Positions 33,416 through 43,606 of a DNA stretch of 64,000 nucleotides are shown here, piece by piece. The number at the start of each line of letters is the position of its first letter. Positions within the stretch are counted from its first letter, which is position 1. The translations under genes were made by a program, and so were the position numbers. The stretch lies in the NCBI RefSeq assembly GCF_024502345.1, contig NZ_JALDNN010000001.1. The stretch is one strand, 5' to 3'. The notes below the pieces were generated by a model. That model was not told the DNA's origin, ran no database searches, and was given only the letters and a program-made list of their open reading frames with translations. This stretch comes from Escherichia coli (GTDB lineage: Bacteria > Pseudomonadota > Gammaproteobacteria > Enterobacterales > Enterobacteriaceae).

Positions 33416-34171
33416 TTAGGTATTAATTAAACAAATAAAGTTACTGTGCAGCCATAAAAACGAAGCCGGGATAGCGGTGGAGACTTTAGCCGTGAGAAAA
33501 CGTTCTGTCGCATCCTGCTTTCCTTCGCCAGTCACCAATAACAAAACCTCGCGGGCATTGAGAATATCCTTCAGGCCTAAGGTGATCCCACGAGTCACGG
33601 GGCGACCCGTGGTTTTTAACATCTCATGTTGCTGTGTTCTGGCATCAAGTTGACTGATATGGCAGGCCGGTTGTAGGCTTTCTCCCGGTTCGTTCAGCCC
33701 AAGATGACCGTTTTTCCCCAACCCGAGAACGCATAAATCCAGACCGCCTTTGCGCGCAATCAGGTTCGTTACCCGTTCGCACTCTGTCTCATTTATCTCT
33801 TCGGAGCGAAAGCTGATGAGCTGGTCTTCACGCAGCCCCAGCGGCTGCACGATATGCTGTTGTAGGAAAGTTTCGCAGGTGCCAGGCATCGTTAATGGCA
33901 GATCCACCCATTCGTCGAGCTTCACGAAGGTGAGCTGGCTGATATCAACCTGCTGCTGGTGGATTTTTTCTACCAGATAATGATACGTCAGTAATGGCGT
34001 GGCTCCGGTCGCCAGGCAAATCACGGCATCCGGTTTGCTACGGATCACAGCCAATAAATATTCGCTGGCTCGTTCACTTAACGCCGTATAGTTTTCAACT
34101 TGCTGAAGGGTTTGCACAGGATGAAATTCCTTAAGTAAAGAGGCACCGCCAGAAGCAGTGCCTCGTTCCAT
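33416..34171 (-). CDS. agaI: galactosamine-6-phosphate deaminase/isomerase-like protein
   Basis: 251-aa NagB-family ORF; position at end of aga cluster. Confidence 0.85.
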   Translation of the reverse strand: MERGTASGGASLLKEFHPVQTLQQVENYTALSERASEYLLAVIRSKPDAVICLATGATPLLTYHYLVEKIHQQQVDISQLTFVKLDEWVDLPLTMPGTCETFLQQHIVQPLGLREDQLISFRSEEINETECERVTNLIARKGGLDLCVLGLGKNGHLGLNEPGESLQPACHISQLDARTQQHEMLKTTGRPVTRGITLGLKDILNAREVLLLVTGEGKQDATERFLTAKVSTAIPASFLWLHSNFICLINT

Positions 34172-34963
34172 TTACAAAATGCCGAATGCGGAACAAACAA
34201 TAGAGAGCACAAAAGTCACGCCGATTAACAGCACCGGATGCGCTTTTTTCACCCGCAGGAAGTAATACATCAGCATGGTGTAGGCCATCGGTAAAATGTT
34301 CGGGAAGACTTTATCGAAGAAATCCTGTTGCAGCGCGACGCTGTGGGTACTGTCGATGGCAAACGATGTCACCACGTTAATATGCACATACGAAGCGATC
34401 AGCCCGCCGATTACCGTGATCCCGAGGATGGTTGCCGAGCGAGCAATCATCTGCGAGTTCTCTCGCACTTTATCGATCGCCTTCACGCCGACTGAATAAC
34501 CGACGTGGGTCCAGCCGACGCGCAGGAAAAAGATAAGCAGGTAAACGGCGAAAAATAGAATCGGCCCCAGCAGGTTTCCCTGGCTGGCAAATGATGAGCA
34601 AATTCCCGCCATAATCGGCAACAAAGTAAACCAGAAAATCGCATCGCCAATCCCGGCGATTGGGCCAAACAGTGCCACTTTGAGGCCTTTAATGGTGTCG
34701 CGGTTTTCTCCTTTTTCTTCCATCGAAATTAATAACCCCATCAGGAATCCGACCAGATTCGGGTGGGTATTAATAAATTCGAGGTTATCTTTCATCGCCG
34801 CGCTTAAGCCCGGTTTGTCGTCCTTATAAATCTTTTTCAGGATCGGCAACATCGCCCAGGTAAAACCGCCCGCCTGCATCCTTTCGTAGTTAAAGCTCGC
34901 TTGCAGCAGCGACGAACGAAAGCCCAGACGGGTGATATCTTTTTTACTGATTTCAGATCCCAT
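34172..34963 (-). CDS. agaD: PTS galactosamine-specific EIID component
   Basis: ORF trimmed to MGSEISKKDITRLG (263 aa); mannose-family IID. Confidence 0.85.
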   Translation of the reverse strand: MGSEISKKDITRLGFRSSLLQASFNYERMQAGGFTWAMLPILKKIYKDDKPGLSAAMKDNLEFINTHPNLVGFLMGLLISMEEKGENRDTIKGLKVALFGPIAGIGDAIFWFTLLPIMAGICSSFASQGNLLGPILFFAVYLLIFFLRVGWTHVGYSVGVKAIDKVRENSQMIARSATILGITVIGGLIASYVHINVVTSFAIDSTHSVALQQDFFDKVFPNILPMAYTMLMYYFLRVKKAHPVLLIGVTFVLSIVCSAFGIL

Positions 34964-35756
34964 TGCTGTAGTCCTCTTCTTCATTTTTACTGGCAACGGG
35001 CTGCGGTTGCGCTTGCTGCCGGGATTTCGCATTGAAAAACTCATACACCGCAAAGCCTGCGCCCAGTACGGCAACCGGCAACAGGTTGCTGACCTGGATG
35101 TAGCAAACAAACAGGAAACCGGCGATCAGGTAAGGGATATATTGCGCTTTGAACATTACGCGCAGCAGCAAGCCAAAACCAACGGCAGGCAGAATACCGC
35201 CAGCCACTTCAAAGCCGTGGGTCAACCAGGCGGGCATCGCTTTCACCAGCGCCTGCATCGCCCCTTGTGCCAGGTAAGTACAGAGGAAAGCAATCACCGC
35301 ATACGCTGAAGCGACGATGAGCATCGTTGTCCAGTTAAGCCGGGAAAACGCTGCCGTATCCGCCTCTTTCGCGCATTTATCGGCTTTGGTCATAAATAAT
35401 GAGAAAGCGGAATAGAAGAACAGAATGACGTACTGCATTAACAAACTAAACGGCAGGCCAAGACCAATTGCTGTTTTGGCATCAACGCCCGTAGACCATG
35501 CAATGACGGTGGTCATCAGACCCGCCATAATCGGGTTGGGCGGCTGAACACCACCTGCAGGGGTTAATCCGGCGAAAGCCAACTCTGTCAGACCACCGGT
35601 AATTAAGCCAGTCTGAATATCACCGAGAATAGCGCCAGTTAGGGTACAAACGATTATCGGGCGGAATAAAAATAAGGCTTCCAGCCAAAAATCAATCCCC
35701 AGAACGAAAACTAACGCCGCCAGGGATAATCCCTGAAGTAGGGTTATTTCATGCAT
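34953..35756 (-). CDS. agaC: PTS galactosamine-specific EIIC component
   Basis: 267-aa membrane ORF recognised as AgaC. Confidence 0.85.
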   Translation of the reverse strand: MHEITLLQGLSLAALVFVLGIDFWLEALFLFRPIIVCTLTGAILGDIQTGLITGGLTELAFAGLTPAGGVQPPNPIMAGLMTTVIAWSTGVDAKTAIGLGLPFSLLMQYVILFFYSAFSLFMTKADKCAKEADTAAFSRLNWTTMLIVASAYAVIAFLCTYLAQGAMQALVKAMPAWLTHGFEVAGGILPAVGFGLLLRVMFKAQYIPYLIAGFLFVCYIQVSNLLPVAVLGAGFAVYEFFNAKSRQQAQPQPVASKNEEEDYSNGI

Positions 35757-35794
35757 TTTTATTACCTCAAACCAATATTAAGGCGATTTTAGAT

Positions 35795-36271
35795 TTAGTC
35801 AGGGATTTGTTCTTTTTGATCGCCAGGGACGTCCTGAATGAAAACATTCACGCCACGTTGTTTAATAAAACGTAAGTCCGCGAGATCCTGGTCATCGACA
35901 TAAACTTTACTGCTGATTTGCTTTTTCCCTTCCGAGAAATGCATATTGCCGACGTTGATATCTTTCAGGTCAATGCCACCTTCTACCAATTTACGTACCG
36001 TTTGTGGCGTACGGCAAATAAGGAAGATCTTCTGATGCGGTGCAGCTTTGCCGATGACGTTAATGGTTTTTTCGATAGTAAAGAAACGAATGCCAAAGCC
36101 GTAGGTTTCTGCGGTAATACCCATTAATTTCTGTTGAATATCATCGTTAGCGACAACATCATCCACGACTACCAGCAGATTCGCACCGATGGTGGATGTC
36201 CAGGTCACGCCAACCTGACCGTGAACCAGACGGTTATCAATACGGGTTAAGAGAATATTTGGACTGCTCAT
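35795..36271 (-). CDS. agaB: PTS galactosamine-specific EIIB component
   Basis: 158-aa ORF recognised as AgaB. Confidence 0.85.
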   Translation of the reverse strand: MSSPNILLTRIDNRLVHGQVGVTWTSTIGANLLVVVDDVVANDDIQQKLMGITAETYGFGIRFFTIEKTINVIGKAAPHQKIFLICRTPQTVRKLVEGGIDLKDINVGNMHFSEGKKQISSKVYVDDQDLADLRFIKQRGVNVFIQDVPGDQKEQIPD

Positions 36272-36437: not shown

Positions 36438-37310
<873 letters not shown>

Positions 37311-38465
37311 TTATGCCTGCCACGGATGAATGATTACGCCTTGCACCACGCGGTTAACGGTGCCGCTGGCTGATGGGGTATCCGGCGTATTGCCCATGTG
37401 CAGCGACTGCATCAGTGCAAACGTCTGGGCGTACATCAGGAAGCAAAATGCCTGCTCAACGTCGATAAAGTGACGTGACGGCGGCAGGATAATATGTGGA
37501 CCGGCAGCGACGATGTCGGTGCTTTCCGCGGCGATGGCGATTACGCGCATTGCCTGGTTGTCACGGCGGAGTTCAGCCAGCAGATCAAGATCATACTGAC
37601 GGGTGTAAGGGTGGCTGGAGACAAATACCACCACCAGTGTTTCGTTATCGACCAGCGATTTTGGTCCATGACGGAATCCGGTTGGAGAATCATAAAAGGC
37701 CGCCAGTTTACCCGCCGTCAGTTCCAGCACTTTCAGCGCCGACTCGCGTGCTGCGCCCTGTAAGCCACCGCTGCCGAGATAAACGATCCGTTTCCACGGT
37801 GCGTAACCAAACACACCTTCGCTGAAATCGCCCAGTGAGGTCAGGATCGCCTGGCAACGATCCGCCACGTCGCGGAAGGTTTGGCTGTTGATCGTCTCAG
37901 GTGCGAAAACCGCGAGGCAGCTGGCCATCATGGTGGTAATGCTGCTGGTCATCGCAAAGCCGCGATCGTGCGTTTCTGCGGGCATCAGCAGGGCAAACGC
38001 GTTATCGCTGTTGATCGCGTTTTGGTAAAGAGCGCCCGCTTCGTTGCAGGTGATCGGCAGGTGATAGCATTCTGGTACAAATTGATTTGCCAGTTCCACG
38101 GCAGCGACGCTTTCCGGGCTGTTGCCGGATCGACCGAAGGAGATCAACAGCAGCGGATGGGCTGGGTTCAGGTAGTCCATCGGATTGGTGACCAGATCGG
38201 TGGTCGGTACGGCGCTGAAGTTTTTACCGGTATGGCTGGCGAGCCACGGCGCGATGATGTCACCGATAAATGCCGACGTTCCGGCTCCGGTCAGGATGAT
38301 CCGCAGATTCTCTTTGCGCAGTAACGGTTCAAGGAAGTTATTGAGCGCGGAACGTAGCGCGTCGATGTTGGTGAGTGAACGGATCCATGCGCGAGGCTGA
38401 TGGCGGATCTCTTCTTCAGTCCATGTACCGGTTGCGGCGGCAGCAGGGGTGTAATTTTCTGGCAT
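37311..38465 (-). CDS. agaS: SIS-domain galactosamine-6-phosphate deaminase/isomerase
   Basis: 384-aa ORF recognised as AgaS. Confidence 0.9.
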   Translation of the reverse strand: MPENYTPAAAATGTWTEEEIRHQPRAWIRSLTNIDALRSALNNFLEPLLRKENLRIILTGAGTSAFIGDIIAPWLASHTGKNFSAVPTTDLVTNPMDYLNPAHPLLLISFGRSGNSPESVAAVELANQFVPECYHLPITCNEAGALYQNAINSDNAFALLMPAETHDRGFAMTSSITTMMASCLAVFAPETINSQTFRDVADRCQAILTSLGDFSEGVFGYAPWKRIVYLGSGGLQGAARESALKVLELTAGKLAAFYDSPTGFRHGPKSLVDNETLVVVFVSSHPYTRQYDLDLLAELRRDNQAMRVIAIAAESTDIVAAGPHIILPPSRHFIDVEQAFCFLMYAQTFALMQSLHMGNTPDTPSASGTVNRVVQGVIIHPWQA

Positions 38466-38620
38466 AACTCAATCCTTAGTCTGATGAACTTGACGTCGGG
38501 CGTTGTCGCTTTCACTTGCCTTTCGTTTCATTTCACTTGGTGATGTCTTTCGTTGATTAAAATCTATATAAAAGAAACTGAAAGTTCAATGGAGAAAAAG
38601 GAAATAAAACGAAATCTGTG
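38466..38620. promoter_or_regulatory. agaS promoter region with repeated CTTTCGTTT-type AgaR operator half-sites
   Basis: cctttcgtttcatttcac, tctttcgttg, aaaacgaaatc motifs upstream of agaS start. Confidence 0.5.
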
Positions 38621-38649
38621 ATCGTTGAAAGAAAAGACAAGGGAAGATT

Positions 38650-38760
38650 AAGAATTGCGTAATGACGTCGCTATGTTCACCGATTGCCGGATGCGGCGTA
38701 CCGTAGGTCGCATAAGACGCGTTAGCGTCGCATCCGACACCGCTGCACAGATCAAAAAGA
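38650..38760. repeat. REP element cluster between agaA and agaS
   Basis: GCCGGATGCGGCGTACCGTAGGTCGCATAAGACGCGTTAGCGTCGCATCCGAC palindromic units. Confidence 0.7.
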
Positions 38761-38804
38761 AAGGCCTTACGGGGGAAGTGAAGGCCCAATAATGGAGCAA
38801 ACCA

Positions 38805-39938
38805 TCAAAACGAAGCTAATTGACCCTGAATCCAGATTTGTTGCACATGTAGCCCGCTATCCAGCGCAACGACGCTGGCGCGTTTGCCCGGTTTAAGCGA
38901 TCCCAGAACACCATCAACACCCAGCATTCGCGCCGGATGCAGCGACGCCATATGGATGGCTTCCGCAGGCGTTACGCCCGTCAACTCGACCATATTGCGC
39001 ACTGCCGCATCAACAGACAGCGTACTGCCCGCCAGCCCACCAGACGCGGTACGGACAACGCCACCGTGCATCTGCACTTCTTCACCACATAACGTATAGC
39101 GACCATCCGGCATCCCAGCTGCCTGCATCGCGTCGGTGATCAGTACGATTCTCTCTTTCGCACAGCAACAACACAGCGACATTGCCGCCGGATGCACATG
39201 ATGACCATCGGCTATCAGTTCCAGCCAGGCGCGCTTGTCCGTTAATCCCGCGCCAACCATTCCCGGTTCGCGGTGATGTAAACCTGTCATCCCGTTATAG
39301 CAATGCACCAGGCCGTCGGCACCAGCATCAAATGCGGCGCGGGTTTGTTGCCAGGTCGCCGCGCTATGCCCCAGCATCACCCTTACGTTTTGCTGTTTAA
39401 GATGGCGGATGGCCTGCAATGCCCCTTCTTTTTCCGGTGCCAGCGCTACCACGCGTAAGGTGTGCTGAGAAACGGCAATCAACTGATCCAGCTCGGCAAT
39501 TTCAAGCTCGCGAAACAACTGCGGCGGATGCGCGCCTTTATTCTGCGGCGTGAAGTACGGTCCTTCGAGATAACTCCCCAGCACTTGCGCACCAGGTCCG
39601 CCGCGTTGGCAACGTTGAGCAATACGTTTCAGCGCCGCATGAATGGTATTAAGCGGCGCGGTTACGGTGGTCGGTAACCAACTGCCGACACCTTCGCGTG
39701 CCTTGTGCATTGCCAGCTTGTCGAGTACATCCGGCGCGTCATCCATTACATCAACGCCCGCACCACCGTGTACATGGGTGTCGATGTAAGCAGGGCAGAG
39801 CAGTTCCGCATCGCGTTCAGTCACGCCCGCTGGAATCGGTTCGATTGCTGCGATGACACCGTCAGCAATACGCAACTGATGGTCATCGAGCCATCCCTCT
39901 TCAGTCAGCAGCCTTCTGGCGCGCAGAACGTGTGTCAT
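38805..39938 (-). CDS. agaA: N-acetylgalactosamine-6-phosphate deacetylase, apparently full length
   Basis: 377-aa NagA-family ORF from ATG at 39938 (overlaps upstream TGA in ATGA) with N-terminal metal-binding HVHGG motif. Confidence 0.85.
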   Translation of the reverse strand: MTHVLRARRLLTEEGWLDDHQLRIADGVIAAIEPIPAGVTERDAELLCPAYIDTHVHGGAGVDVMDDAPDVLDKLAMHKAREGVGSWLPTTVTAPLNTIHAALKRIAQRCQRGGPGAQVLGSYLEGPYFTPQNKGAHPPQLFRELEIAELDQLIAVSQHTLRVVALAPEKEGALQAIRHLKQQNVRVMLGHSAATWQQTRAAFDAGADGLVHCYNGMTGLHHREPGMVGAGLTDKRAWLELIADGHHVHPAAMSLCCCCAKERIVLITDAMQAAGMPDGRYTLCGEEVQMHGGVVRTASGGLAGSTLSVDAAVRNMVELTGVTPAEAIHMASLHPARMLGVDGVLGSLKPGKRASVVALDSGLHVQQIWIQGQLASF

Positions 39939-40078
39939 ATCCCTTCCTCGACCGGACATTCTTCATGGCAGCGGTCTAACTCGTCCACCAGACTGGTCAG
40001 CCCACGATGTCCACACTCCAGCGCCTGTACTCGGAATTCTTCACCGCTTAACCCTTCGCGCTCCAGCACCATCTCCAG
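39935..40078 (-). pseudogene. agaF: 3' remnant (47 codons) of PTS EIIA gene agaF, lacking start
   Basis: In-frame peptide LEMVLEREGLSGEEFRVQALECGHRGLTSLVDELDRCHEECPVEEGI ending in stop that overlaps agaA start; no upstream initiator. Confidence 0.5.
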
Positions 40079-40241
40079 TACCGCCGGTTAAAATACCGGT
40101 ATGCAGATCGCCAAGTACCAGCCCGACTAACGGGCCGAGGACCACCGGGCGGTGCATATGGGTTAAGCCGTTAAACATATCCAGGCCAGCGATAAAGGCG
40201 ATAATGCCCAACGCGAATGCCTGCAACAGACTGATTTCCAT
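40041..40241 (-). pseudogene. agaW: 5' fragment of PTS EIIC gene agaW (54 native codons then frameshifted tail)
   Basis: N-terminus MEISLLQAFALGIIAFIAGLD... parallels AgaC N-terminus, then runs out of frame into agaF remnant. Confidence 0.6.
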
Positions 40242-40251
40242 GATGAATCCC

Positions 40252-40725
40252 TCAAAGTAATTTAAAGAGGTCCACAGCAGGCTCTGTCGGGACGCCCTGA
40301 ACGAAGCATTCCACCCCAGCGGCTTTCAGGTCGTTAAATGCTGCGATATCGCCCGCATCCACAGAAACCGTTTTGGCGATTTGTTGCTTGCCATTGGCGT
40401 AGTGCATATTGCCAACGTTAATGCGATTCACCGGAACGCCACCTTTCACCAGCGTCAGGAAATCGGCGGGTGTTTTACAAACCAGCAGGATTTTCTGTCG
40501 ATCGGCGGCGCGATGAATGTTGTCGATAACTTTTTGCAGCGTCCAGAAACGTACGGCGATCCCTTCTGCCAGTACCATTTCCATCAGGTTTTGTTGTACC
40601 GGATCTTCGGCAACCTCATCGTTGGCTACCAGCACCAGATTTGCCCCCGCAAATCCGACCCACTGAACGCCGACCTGACCGTGAATCAAGCGTTCATCAA
40701 TCCGGCTTAAAACAATATTTGGCAT
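40252..40725 (-). CDS. agaV: PTS N-acetylgalactosamine-specific EIIB component
   Basis: ORF trimmed to MPNIVLSRIDERLIHGQ (157 aa); paralogue of AgaB. Confidence 0.85.
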   Translation of the reverse strand: MPNIVLSRIDERLIHGQVGVQWVGFAGANLVLVANDEVAEDPVQQNLMEMVLAEGIAVRFWTLQKVIDNIHRAADRQKILLVCKTPADFLTLVKGGVPVNRINVGNMHYANGKQQIAKTVSVDAGDIAAFNDLKAAGVECFVQGVPTEPAVDLFKLL

Positions 40726-40747
40726 AGCGTGTTCCTCTTTGTTTTGC

Positions 40748-42028
40748 TTATTGGCCTTCACAGGCTGTGTGGTACTGCGCCAGGATGTCCTGAATATGGT
40801 TGATAATGAGTTCCCGTGGCGTTGGCTGCAGCTCGCCGGAGCGAACTTTCACGTACTGCAGCGGCAGATACTGGCTGATCAGCGGCAGCGGAATTGGTGA
40901 ATCCGCCAGATTACGTACCAGATGAGCGAAAGCGTCATCAATCTGGCTGTCCGGCCAGTAATAGCGCACGCGATCCGAGTAGCTATAACCACGCGCCAGA
41001 CGACGCGCGTTGCCGTCACCGTGGTAGTGGCTTTGCCAGTATTCCGGGCGGTCGAGCATCACGTTTTCCAGCACCTGACGCAGACCAGAACAGGCTTTTG
41101 CTGGCACCAGTTCTTCTTCAATCGCTGCCAGAGAGAACAGAGCTTCACGCAGGGCGAAGGTCAGCGCCGGGCCAACTTTCAGAATGGCAAAGTGGTCAAT
41201 CACCAGCCGGCGCAGCGATTGCGGCGTTTGATAATCGGTAGAGTGCGCTTCGAAAATCAGCGTTTCGTAGCTTTCGACCATCTGGCTTAAGGCGGTCGCT
41301 TTGGCGGGCTGATAATCAATAACGTTGGTGTGATCGAATTCGACGCCGGGTTGAACCACCAGGGCAATGATGCGTGGCCAGATGGCATTCAAACCTTGCT
41401 TTTCAAAGGCGTGACGATGGGCTTCCAGCGTGGCGCGGGCGGCATCCGGCGTGGTGACCACCAGCTCGCTTAAGGTTTCATGCGCGCCGCCAGGTACCGG
41501 CACTTCGGTACCAATGACATACTCCAGATCGGCTTCGCCAAAGTGTTCAAGACAGGTTTCTTCCGCCACTTTCGCCAGACGGGCGGCGCGTTCAGCCACG
41601 ATGTCATCAGTTAAGGGAATCGGATCGTCCTGACAGGACATGCTGCAATCAAGGTGGATTTTTTTGAATCCTGCCGCAACGTAGCTTTTAATCAAATCAT
41701 CGGCATTGGCCATTGCCTGAGCGGCCGGCAGGTTTTGCCAGCGGTTTGGCCCCAGATGGTCACCACCCAGAATCAACGCATCCTGCGGGAAATTCAACGA
41801 GTCGGCGAGCTGACAAACAAAGCCGCGAAAATCGGCGGGCGTCATTCCGGTATAACCGCCGAACTGGTCTACCTGATTGGAGGTTGCTTCAATCAGTAAC
41901 GGCGTTTGGTTTGCACTGGCGTAGCGGATTGCAGCCTCCAGCACCAGCGGATGTGCGGAACAAACGGCATAAATTCCATTTGTTTTGCCCGCTTTGTGCT
42001 GTCTCACCATTTCTGTCAGATGTTTCAC
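40748..42028 (-). CDS. kbaZ: tagatose-bisphosphate aldolase non-catalytic subunit
   Basis: 426-aa ORF recognised as KbaZ/AgaZ. Confidence 0.9.
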
Positions 42029-42276
42029 TTTCCTCTCCAGTTCAGATTACTGCGATATTAATCTTTCGTTTTGTTTCAGTTGATACTGCGTCATGGTGAG
42101 ATAAAAATAAAACGAAAGATAATAGTTTTCTGATCTGATTCACAAAAGAAACATAATGAAAGTCACTGAAACGAGAGTAGCTTGCGTCAATGGGCAAGGT
42201 GGGCTTGCATTTGCTTAATAGAAAGGCGTTAATAGGCAAAACGAAATGAAACGAAAGTTTTACGAAAGGACTTACT
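42029..42276. promoter_or_regulatory. kbaZ/agaR divergent control region with repeated AgaR operator motifs
   Basis: At least five copies of CTTTCGTTT / AAACGAAAG (e.g. 42063-42072, 42108-42118, 42240-42270). Confidence 0.6.
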
Positions 42277-43086
42277 ATGAGTAATACCGACGCTTCAGGT
42301 GAGAAGCGAGTGACAGGCACCAGCGAGCGACGAGAACAGATCATTCAGCGTCTGCGACAGCAAGGGAGTGTGCAGGTTAACGATCTGTCGGCATTGTATG
42401 GCGTATCTACTGTGACGATCCGCAACGATCTGGCGTTTCTGGAAAAGCAGGGGATCGCTGTGCGTGCCTATGGTGGCGCGTTGATCTGCGATAGCACGAC
42501 GCCGTCAGTCGAGCCATCAGTGGAAGATAAAAGCGCACTGAACACCGCGATGAAACGCAGCGTTGCGAAAGCTGCCGTTGAGTTGATTCAGCCAGGTCAT
42601 CGGGTGATCCTCGATTCCGGGACCACCACTTTTGAGATTGCTCGTCTGATGCGCAAGCACACTGACGTAATTGCGATGACCAACGGTATGAACGTGGCTA
42701 ATGCGTTGCTGGAAGCGGAAGGCGTTGAGCTGCTGATGACCGGCGGGCATTTGCGCCGTCAGTCGCAATCTCTTTACGGCGATCAGGCTGAGCAATCGCT
42801 GCAAAATTACCACTTCGATATGCTGTTTCTTGGTGTAGATGCGATTGATCTGGAGCGCGGCGTCAGCACACATAATGAAGATGAAGCCCGTTTAAACCGC
42901 CGGATGTGCGAAGTTGCGGAACGGATCATCGTGGTCACCGATTCCAGTAAGTTCAATCGTTCCAGTTTACATAAGATCATTGATACTCAACGTATCGACA
43001 TGATCATTGTTGATGAAGGCATTCCTGCGGATAGTCTGGAAGGACTGCGAAAGGCTGGGGTTGAAGTGATTCTGGTCGGGGAGTGA
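42277..43086 (+). CDS. agaR: DeoR-family repressor of the aga regulon
   Basis: 269-aa ORF with N-terminal HTH and DeoR-type sugar-binding domain. Confidence 0.9.
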
Positions 43087-43141: not shown

Positions 43142-43606
43142 TCAATGGTTTTCTTCTGTCTCTTGGGTGAGGCTTTCCCAGTCGGCAGGAGGATGTCCTC
43201 TTTTTAACATTTTACTGAATACGGTATAGGCATCTGTTTTTTTACCGTAGGTGCGCAGCGTGTTTTCATCGTTCATCCATCCCAGAATGATGACTTTCTC
43301 TTTTTCACTATAGCGAAAGAAGAGACGATAACGACCAGCATCAAATTTTACCCGTGACCAGTCTTTATTTTTCCCAGAGCCTAACGACTTGCCATGACGG
43401 AATGCCGGTGATGATGGATTGACCGTGATATGCTCCTCAATCACTTTATGGACTACCGCCAATAACTTTGTGGCGGCTTTTCTCTGATAATTTTCAGGAT
43501 CTTTTCCCTTTAATGTCTCGACTTCGGCAACTAAAGCGTCGTAGGTTTCCTGAAAACAGGGATGAGCATATAGCGCCCAACCATTAACCCTTTGTGGAAA
43601 ATCCAT
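43142..43606 (-). CDS. yhaV: type II toxin YhaV (ribosome-dependent mRNA interferase)
   Basis: 154-aa ORF recognised as YhaV; overlaps prlF stop. Confidence 0.9.
   Translation of the reverse strand: MDFPQRVNGWALYAHPCFQETYDALVAEVETLKGKDPENYQRKAATKLLAVVHKVIEEHITVNPSSPAFRHGKSLGSGKNKDWSRVKFDAGRYRLFFRYSEKEKVIILGWMNDENTLRTYGKKTDAYTVFSKMLKRGHPPADWESLTQETEENH

Follow-up and report, generated by a model that had tools for sequence, protein, structure and literature searches.

The divergent region between kbaZ and agaR in this stretch of Escherichia coli DNA is crowded with short T-rich repeats, which raises the question of whether they serve as operators for AgaR, which belongs to the DeoR family and represses the N-acetylgalactosamine/galactosamine (aga) regulon, and which of the copies deserve that name. 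We addressed this question in the window, i.e., the whole 64-kb stretch of DNA analysed here, in which the aga cluster is of the E. coli type and lies in reverse orientation. Gene coordinates follow the open reading frame list together with the annotated clusters of A30 and K-12 MG1655, and the transporter remnant was delimited by a BLAST comparison with the complete A30 cluster:

33416-36271, minus strand: agaI, agaD, agaC and agaB
36438-37298, minus strand: kbaY
37311-38465, minus strand: agaS
38805-39938, minus strand: agaA
about 39960-40241, minus strand: agaW'-'agaF remnant
40252-40761, minus strand: agaV
40748-42028, minus strand: kbaZ
42029-42276: divergent intergenic region of 248 bp between kbaZ (minus) and agaR (plus)
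42277-43086, plus strand: agaR
43142-43606, minus strand: yhaV

The sequence-only reading of this DNA had counted at least five copies of a 9-mer in the kbaZ-agaR region and had pointed to similar motifs upstream of agaS. The sequences it quoted are present where it had placed them, and so are the motifs upstream of agaS (38517-38618). We show that the motif cluster is real and that the earlier count was overstated. Exact copies of CTTTCGTTT/AAACGAAAG number three in 42029-42276 (42063 on the plus strand, 42110 and 42249 on the minus strand), and the figure of five holds only once one mismatch is allowed, which adds 42169 (minus strand, CTCTCGTTT) and 42239 (minus strand, ATTTCGTTT). Together with a single exact copy upstream of agaS (38520, plus strand), the window contains four exact copies against 0.84 expected, all of them in the two aga regions.

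Such repeats could have arisen by chance in T/A-rich promoter DNA, as A-tracts, UP-element-like sequence or terminator T-tracts with no specific protein partner. The motif is indeed T-rich, one distal copy falls on a terminator U-tract, four copies are unconserved, and one-mismatch 9-mers are common throughout the window (28 against 20.5 expected from shuffling, not significant). At the same shuffle rate (20.5 per 64 kb), approximately 0.08 one-mismatch 9-mers would be expected in the 248-bp kbaZ-agaR region, which holds five. The longer pattern CTTTCRTTTYRTTTY, with up to two mismatches, matched 12 times against 2.5 expected, with 9 of the 12 in the two aga regions. We also compared the window with the published AgaR consensus, which we take to be the 24-nt string WRMMTTTCRTTTYRTTTYNYTTKK. 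With up to three mismatches, this string matched five times in the 64-kb window against 0.24 expected; all five matches lie in the two aga regions and two are perfect (38517-38540, plus strand; 42237-42260, minus strand). Full-text literature searches for the consensus string or the operator sequences returned no match. The confinement of 4/4 exact copies and 5/5 consensus matches to two short regions speaks against chance.

Seven sites stand out as conserved operators, four in the kbaZ-agaR region (A, B, C2 and D2) and three upstream of agaS (S2, S4 and S5). Mismatches below are counted against this 24-nt consensus, and bits are scores under a weight matrix built from these seven window sites:

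42060-42083, plus strand: operator A, AATCTTTCGTTTTGTTTCAGTTGA; 3 mismatches, 25.8 bits; conserved as taTCTTTCGtTTTGTTTCAtTTaA across genera
42098-42121, minus strand: operator B, TATCTTTCGTTTTATTTTTATCTC; 22.9 bits; conserved across genera
42142-42165, minus strand: operator C2, TGACTTTCATTATGTTTCTTTTGT; 1 mismatch, 24.1 bits; nearly invariant across genera
42237-42260, minus strand: operator D2, AAACTTTCGTTTCATTTCGTTTTG; perfect match, 26.3 bits; positions 42243-42257 invariant across genera
38517-38540, plus strand: operator S2, TGCCTTTCGTTTCATTTCACTTGG; perfect match; conserved across genera
38564-38587, minus strand: operator S4, GAACTTTCAGTTTCTTTTATATAG; 20.6 bits; conserved as GAaCTTTCGnTTTCTTTtCTATAg
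38595-38618, minus strand: operator S5, CAGATTTCGTTTTATTTCCTTTTT; 2 mismatches, 24.1 bits; conserved

Gene order relative to the annotated K-12 and A30 clusters confirms the location of the operators, within 42060-42260 for the kbaZ-agaR sites and within 38517-38618 for those upstream of agaS. The 9-mer misses one of the conserved operators, C2 (CTTTCATTATGTTTC). The operators are 20-24 bp long and made of direct xTTTC units, with CTTTC and a second K/ATTTC unit separated by 10 bp and, in many cases, a third unit at +5, as in CTTTC-GTTTT-GTTTC (A), CTTTC-ATTAT-GTTTC (C2) and CTTTC-GTTTC-ATTTC (D2, S2); the consensus here is nCTTTCRTTTYRTTTCnnTT. The unit period of 5/10 bp places the repeated elements on one face of the helix. 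In the motif count by weight matrix, every window match of at least 19 bits falls within the two aga regions and nothing above 15 bits lies outside them, a result that is circular because the matrix was made from the window's own sites.

To look beyond the window, we scanned with the AgaR protein, taking one genome per species, and obtained 80 loci covering about 25 other enterobacterial genera. The loci include Escherichia, Klebsiella, Kluyvera, Citrobacter, Raoultella, Enterobacter, Salmonella (arizonae, diarizonae), Lelliottia and Kosakonia, as well as Yersinia, Buttiauxella, Serratia, Trabulsiella, Cedecea, Mixta, Pantoea, Ewingella and others. In 80/80 loci, kbaZ and agaR are divergent, and the intergenic length is 248-251 bp in 66/74. 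All seven operators are conserved in sequence and position above the flanking non-coding DNA. At a threshold of at least 16 bits, the matrix gave 592 matches in 1.10 Mb from the 80 loci, 568 of them (96%) in the two aga regions (322 in the kbaZ-agaR region, 246 within 250 bp upstream of agaS and 24 elsewhere), a test that is only partly independent, given that these regions are homologous to the window. Four matches per locus occur at fixed positions of the kbaZ-agaR region in 66/80 loci. With 96% of the matches at fixed positions in the same two regions, and with operator cores conserved base by base while the flanks are not, we consider it exceedingly improbable that the repeats are a by-product of base composition without a protein partner.

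In Citrobacter-type loci (seven of those scanned), the matrix also found a match of about 21 bits (e.g., GCTTTCGTTTTCTTTTTAAT) approximately 255 bp past the agaR stop codon, at a position occupied by yhaV in E. coli. This site may mark an additional regulon member there.

The spacing between operators is almost invariant. Measured from core to core, A and B are 55 bp apart in 58/65 loci, the B-to-C2 distance is 44 bp in 64/65, and the C2-to-D2 distance is 96 +/- 2 bp across genera. The last of these spans 42163-42200, 38 bp between C2 and the putative agaR promoter in which the sequence is free to vary and the C2-D2 length is kept. This stretch resembles a spacer under length constraint, a hint that the repressor may bind in a phase-dependent (looped) manner, and the fixed spacings as a whole suggest that AgaR binds cooperatively or in a looped arrangement.

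Conservation also separates the operators from four incidental motif copies in the two regions, at 42169-42177, 38506-38514, 38547-38555 and 42261-42269:

42169-42177, minus strand: one-mismatch copy CTCTCGTTT (AAACGAGAG), inside the unconserved stretch 42163-42200
38506-38514, plus strand: copy CTTTCACTT, low conservation across genera
38547-38555, plus strand: one-mismatch copy CTTTCGTTG, low conservation across genera
42261-42270, plus strand: ttacgaaagg, third "repeat" of the tandem before agaR, mainly the agaR Shine-Dalgarno sequence

The copy at 42169-42177 is probably not an operator, since it sits in the sole unconserved stretch of the region (conservation 0.1-0.4). The tandem aaaacgaaatgaaacgaaagttttacgaaagg that had been described just before agaR is present at 42238-42269, directly 5' of the agaR ATG (42277), but its third unit is mostly the agaR Shine-Dalgarno sequence: GAAAGG (42265-42270), 7 nt before the ATG, is conserved, and the TTAC part (42260-42263) is not conserved across genera.

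A generic sigma-70 scan returned no promoter on the kbaZ or agaS strand and two plus-strand matches of uncertain meaning (42080-42123); we therefore took the hexamers of the kbaZ, agaR and agaS promoters (PZ, PR and PS) from cross-genus conservation. The elements considered, other than the two PZ candidates, are as follows:

42129-42144: CRP-like site TCTGATCTGATTCACA, 1 mismatch to TGTGA-N6-TCACA
42203-42236, plus strand: promoter-like block CTTGCAT...GAAAGG.GTTAATAGG, conserved across genera
42205-42234, plus strand: putative agaR promoter PR, with -35 TTGCAT (42205-42210), a 17-bp spacer and -10 GTTAAT (42228-42233)
38589-38561, minus strand: putative PS promoter, with -35 TTGAAC (38589-38584), a 17-bp spacer and -10 TAGATT (38566-38561), hexamers read from conservation
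38617-38632: weak CRP-like half site, in which TGTGATC (38617-38623) is conserved; 3 mismatches to the CRP pattern

For PZ, two candidate placements fit the conserved hexamers. The first would have its -10 at TATTTT (42109-42104), overlapped by operator B, with the CRP-like site near -40 and with operator A placed relative to the -10 just as S2 is at PS. The second would have its -10 at CAGTAT (42088-42083), with the CRP-like site near -61 and with A and B lying over the -10 and -35. With either placement the operators would bracket or overlap core promoters, which agrees with the published account of repression through promoter overlap.

The kbaZ promoter reportedly requires CRP. The site at 42129-42144 is one of only four in the window that match the CRP pattern with up to one mismatch, and its right half and spacer are conserved across genera. 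The half site upstream of agaS is by itself not above chance, as sites with three mismatches to the CRP pattern are not enriched in the window (198 against 231 expected).

The putative PR is conserved as CTTGCaTTcc...AAAaGAAAGG.gTTAATAgg across genera, and its spacer carries a conserved CCTTTCT on the minus strand (42220-42226). A terminator-like hairpin at 42194-42208 (plus strand; GCAAGGTGGGCTTGC then ATTTGCTT) was returned by a consensus scan; we judged it to be probably a chance occurrence, as it consists mostly of unconserved sequence and overlaps the putative PR -35.

On this map, AgaR without inducer would occupy its sites and block RNA polymerase at PZ, PR and PS, including its own promoter, and growth on GalNAc or GalN would lift the repression. 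A and B would flank or overlap the kbaZ core promoter, with C2 just upstream of the CRP-like site. D2 would span the predicted start site of agaR, in keeping with autorepression. At PS, S2 lies downstream of the predicted start, about 20 bp past the -10, S4 falls within the spacer between the putative -35 and -10, and S5 sits just upstream of the -35.

The position of A, S2 and D2 in or near predicted 5' untranslated regions could alternatively mean that the repeats act at the RNA level, through a leader structure or a small RNA, and not as DNA operators. However, the sites occur in both orientations, B, C2, S4 and S5 lie upstream of promoters, and 38300-42400 contains no Rfam family. Conservation concerns sequence and spacing and gives no indication of pairing arms, and we regard an RNA-level role as barely credible.

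The DNA-operator reading, which assigns the sites to AgaR, is reinforced by comparison with E. coli K-12, which shares the locus, the genes, the operator sequences and a DeoR-family repressor that differs by one amino acid. The kbaZ-agaR intergenic region is identical to that of K-12 at 247 of 248 positions, and the sole difference (42124, A versus G) lies outside every motif; window position x maps to K-12 position 3278914 + (42028 - x). The motif copies upstream of agaS are all identical to K-12, as are all seven conserved operators. AgaR operators of K-12 have reportedly been described at PZ (kbaZ/agaZ), PR (agaR) and PS (agaS) by Ray & Larson (2004), and a comparative reconstruction is reported by Leyn et al. 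(2012).

Could the repeats nevertheless be bound mainly by another regulator, such as GatR or another DeoR-family sugar repressor, or by a nucleoid protein, with AgaR acting elsewhere? DeoR-family paralogues do exist in E. coli. However, the motif accompanies agaR in every genus examined, and it adjoins the agaR start codon, as expected of an autoregulated repressor; AgaR is described as autoregulatory in PMC4694137. The secondary literature, including PMC3668189, assigns binding at exactly these three promoters (PZ, PR and PS) to AgaR. Furthermore, Table S3 of PMC8667592 lists an AgaR site from PkbaZ, CTTTCGTTTCATTTTCGTTT, that corresponds to D2 (genomic CTTTCGTTTCATTTCGTTTT at 42257-42238, minus strand), the printed sequence being shifted by 1 nt. 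The shift is probably typographical or an engineered variant, K-12 and the window being the same there. In that study, a synthetic promoter carrying the D2 sequence as its AgaR site showed AgaR-dependent repression. Binding mainly by a different protein is thus very improbable.

Taken together, the identity with K-12, the enrichment of the motif, the conservation of the sites and of their spacing across genera, and the intact state of the repressor gene make us highly confident that the motifs are AgaR operators, as the sequence-only reading had proposed in attributing them to the known AgaR regulon; the matches to the 24-nt consensus and the Table S3 site point the same way. The operators here are already known and not a new feature, and the region is an ordinary, well-conserved regulatory region.

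The repressor itself is full length (269 aa) and carries an N-terminal HTH_DeoR domain (PF08220, 1.9e-21) and a C-terminal DeoRC domain (PF00455, 8.3e-55), both above the curated cut-offs, which is the architecture of the DeoR/GlpR family. It differs from K-12 AgaR by one substitution, F166L (codon at 42772-42774); A30 also has F at this position, and other-genus orthologues have F in 75/77 and Y in 2/77. The substitution is probably tolerated, because the same L166 allele also occurs beside an intact agaVWEF cluster in another assembly. Given F166L, the repressor or inducer-response function of AgaR in the window's lineage is not guaranteed.

The sequence-only reading had also suggested that regulation is retained despite deletion of the agaWEF transporter genes. 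The deletion is real (about 1.79 kb relative to A30), but it does not remove three whole genes: it runs from about agaW codon 56 into agaF, so that agaE is lost completely, together with the 3' part of agaW and the 5' part of agaF. What remains is an out-of-frame fusion of the first 55 agaW codons with the 3' part of agaF; both agaV and agaA are intact. At the junction (about 40062-40080) lies an imperfect 12-bp microhomology, CACCATCTCCAG versus CACCAGTTCCAG. Of 5315 complete E. coli genomes in which the search found a match, none has the junction (0/5315). It is shared, however, by five public assemblies whose identity to the window is 99.7-99.99%, and hence represents a real lineage trait. 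The K-12 deletion is a separate event, 2.3 kb long and running from agaW' to agaA'.

Retained regulation is plausible, given a full-length AgaR with both DeoR-family domains. It is also reasonable by analogy with K-12, in which the cluster is likewise deleted and PZ and PS fusions are AgaR-controlled and GalNAc-inducible, according to PMC3668189 citing Ray & Larson.

Another change of the window's lineage lies behind agaA:

38754-38787, minus strand: agaA terminator hairpin (38763-38787, from folding) followed by CCTTTCTTTTT, the remnant of a distal CTTTC-N5-CTTTC repeat

In K-12, A30 and most other genera, the hairpin is followed by CCTTTCTTTTT-CTTTCGTTTT, i.e., two CTTTC units 10 bp apart. 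Compared with K-12 and A30, the window lacks exactly the second 10-bp unit, CTTTCGTTTT, and the same deletion is found in its near-identical public relatives. In alignments with 5067 E. coli genomes that gave a match, the sequence breaks off at this point in every case but one, and that one carries a different indel; neither this 10-bp deletion nor the agaW-agaF deletion was found among 5,426 complete E. coli genomes. The weight matrix also matches the distal two-unit repeat in many genera, and the repeat could serve as an AgaR operator, could lengthen the U-tract of the terminator, or could do both.

Two other elements were observed near the agaA terminator. In many non-Escherichia genera, a CTTTCATT/CTTTCGTT motif lies past the agaA stop codon and before the terminator hairpin, and it is absent from the window and from K-12. 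A REP-like palindromic element (gccggatgcggcg...cgcatccgaca) occupies 38680-38745, between the distal repeat and the agaS promoter; the K-12 version is longer, with two copies, and other genera have none.

On these grounds, AgaR oligomers might form DNA loops that connect the kbaZ promoter with the agaR promoter, and possibly also the agaA terminator with PS, and the window's lineage might be at an early stage of regulon decay. The looping part draws on the invariant spacings over about 25 genera and on the distal CTTTC-N5-CTTTC repeat, which is conserved and directly adjoins the agaA terminator. The decay part draws on the agaW-agaF deletion, which would be new and microhomology-mediated, on a 10-bp slippage that would have halved the distal operator, and on F166L at a near-invariant residue of the sensor domain. 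We put this combined proposal forward tentatively and hold it to be rather doubtful.

Related systems offer a partial precedent. GlpR and DeoR of E. coli have multiple operators, bind cooperatively and form loops, and their half-sites are palindromic. AgaR shares their two-domain architecture and, like them, has multiple operators per promoter at fixed distances, here roughly in helical phase. In contrast to their palindromic half-sites, the AgaR sites here consist of direct xTTTC units whose period is 5/10 bp. The PDB holds no DeoR-family/DNA complex related to AgaR, its only relevant entry being the DeoR C-terminal domain 7L6L. Streptococcal AgaR (Streptococcus pneumoniae, S. suis) shares the name and the sugar pathway controlled; however, it belongs to the GntR family and has unrelated operators (PMC4694137, PMC5018945), and the regulation is not homologous.

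Although the significance beyond annotation is small, our results are modestly useful in several ways. The aga regulatory DNA here is essentially that of K-12, so that the model published for repression by AgaR can be carried over to this genome as it stands, and the site-by-site map sets conserved operators apart from incidental motif copies. That the operator spacing stays rigid across Enterobacterales is an argument for AgaR binding cooperatively or with looping. Finally, the erosion seen in this lineage, with a new transporter deletion, a half-deleted distal repeat and F166L, may interest those who track the loss of GalNAc use in E. coli and Shigella-like lineages.
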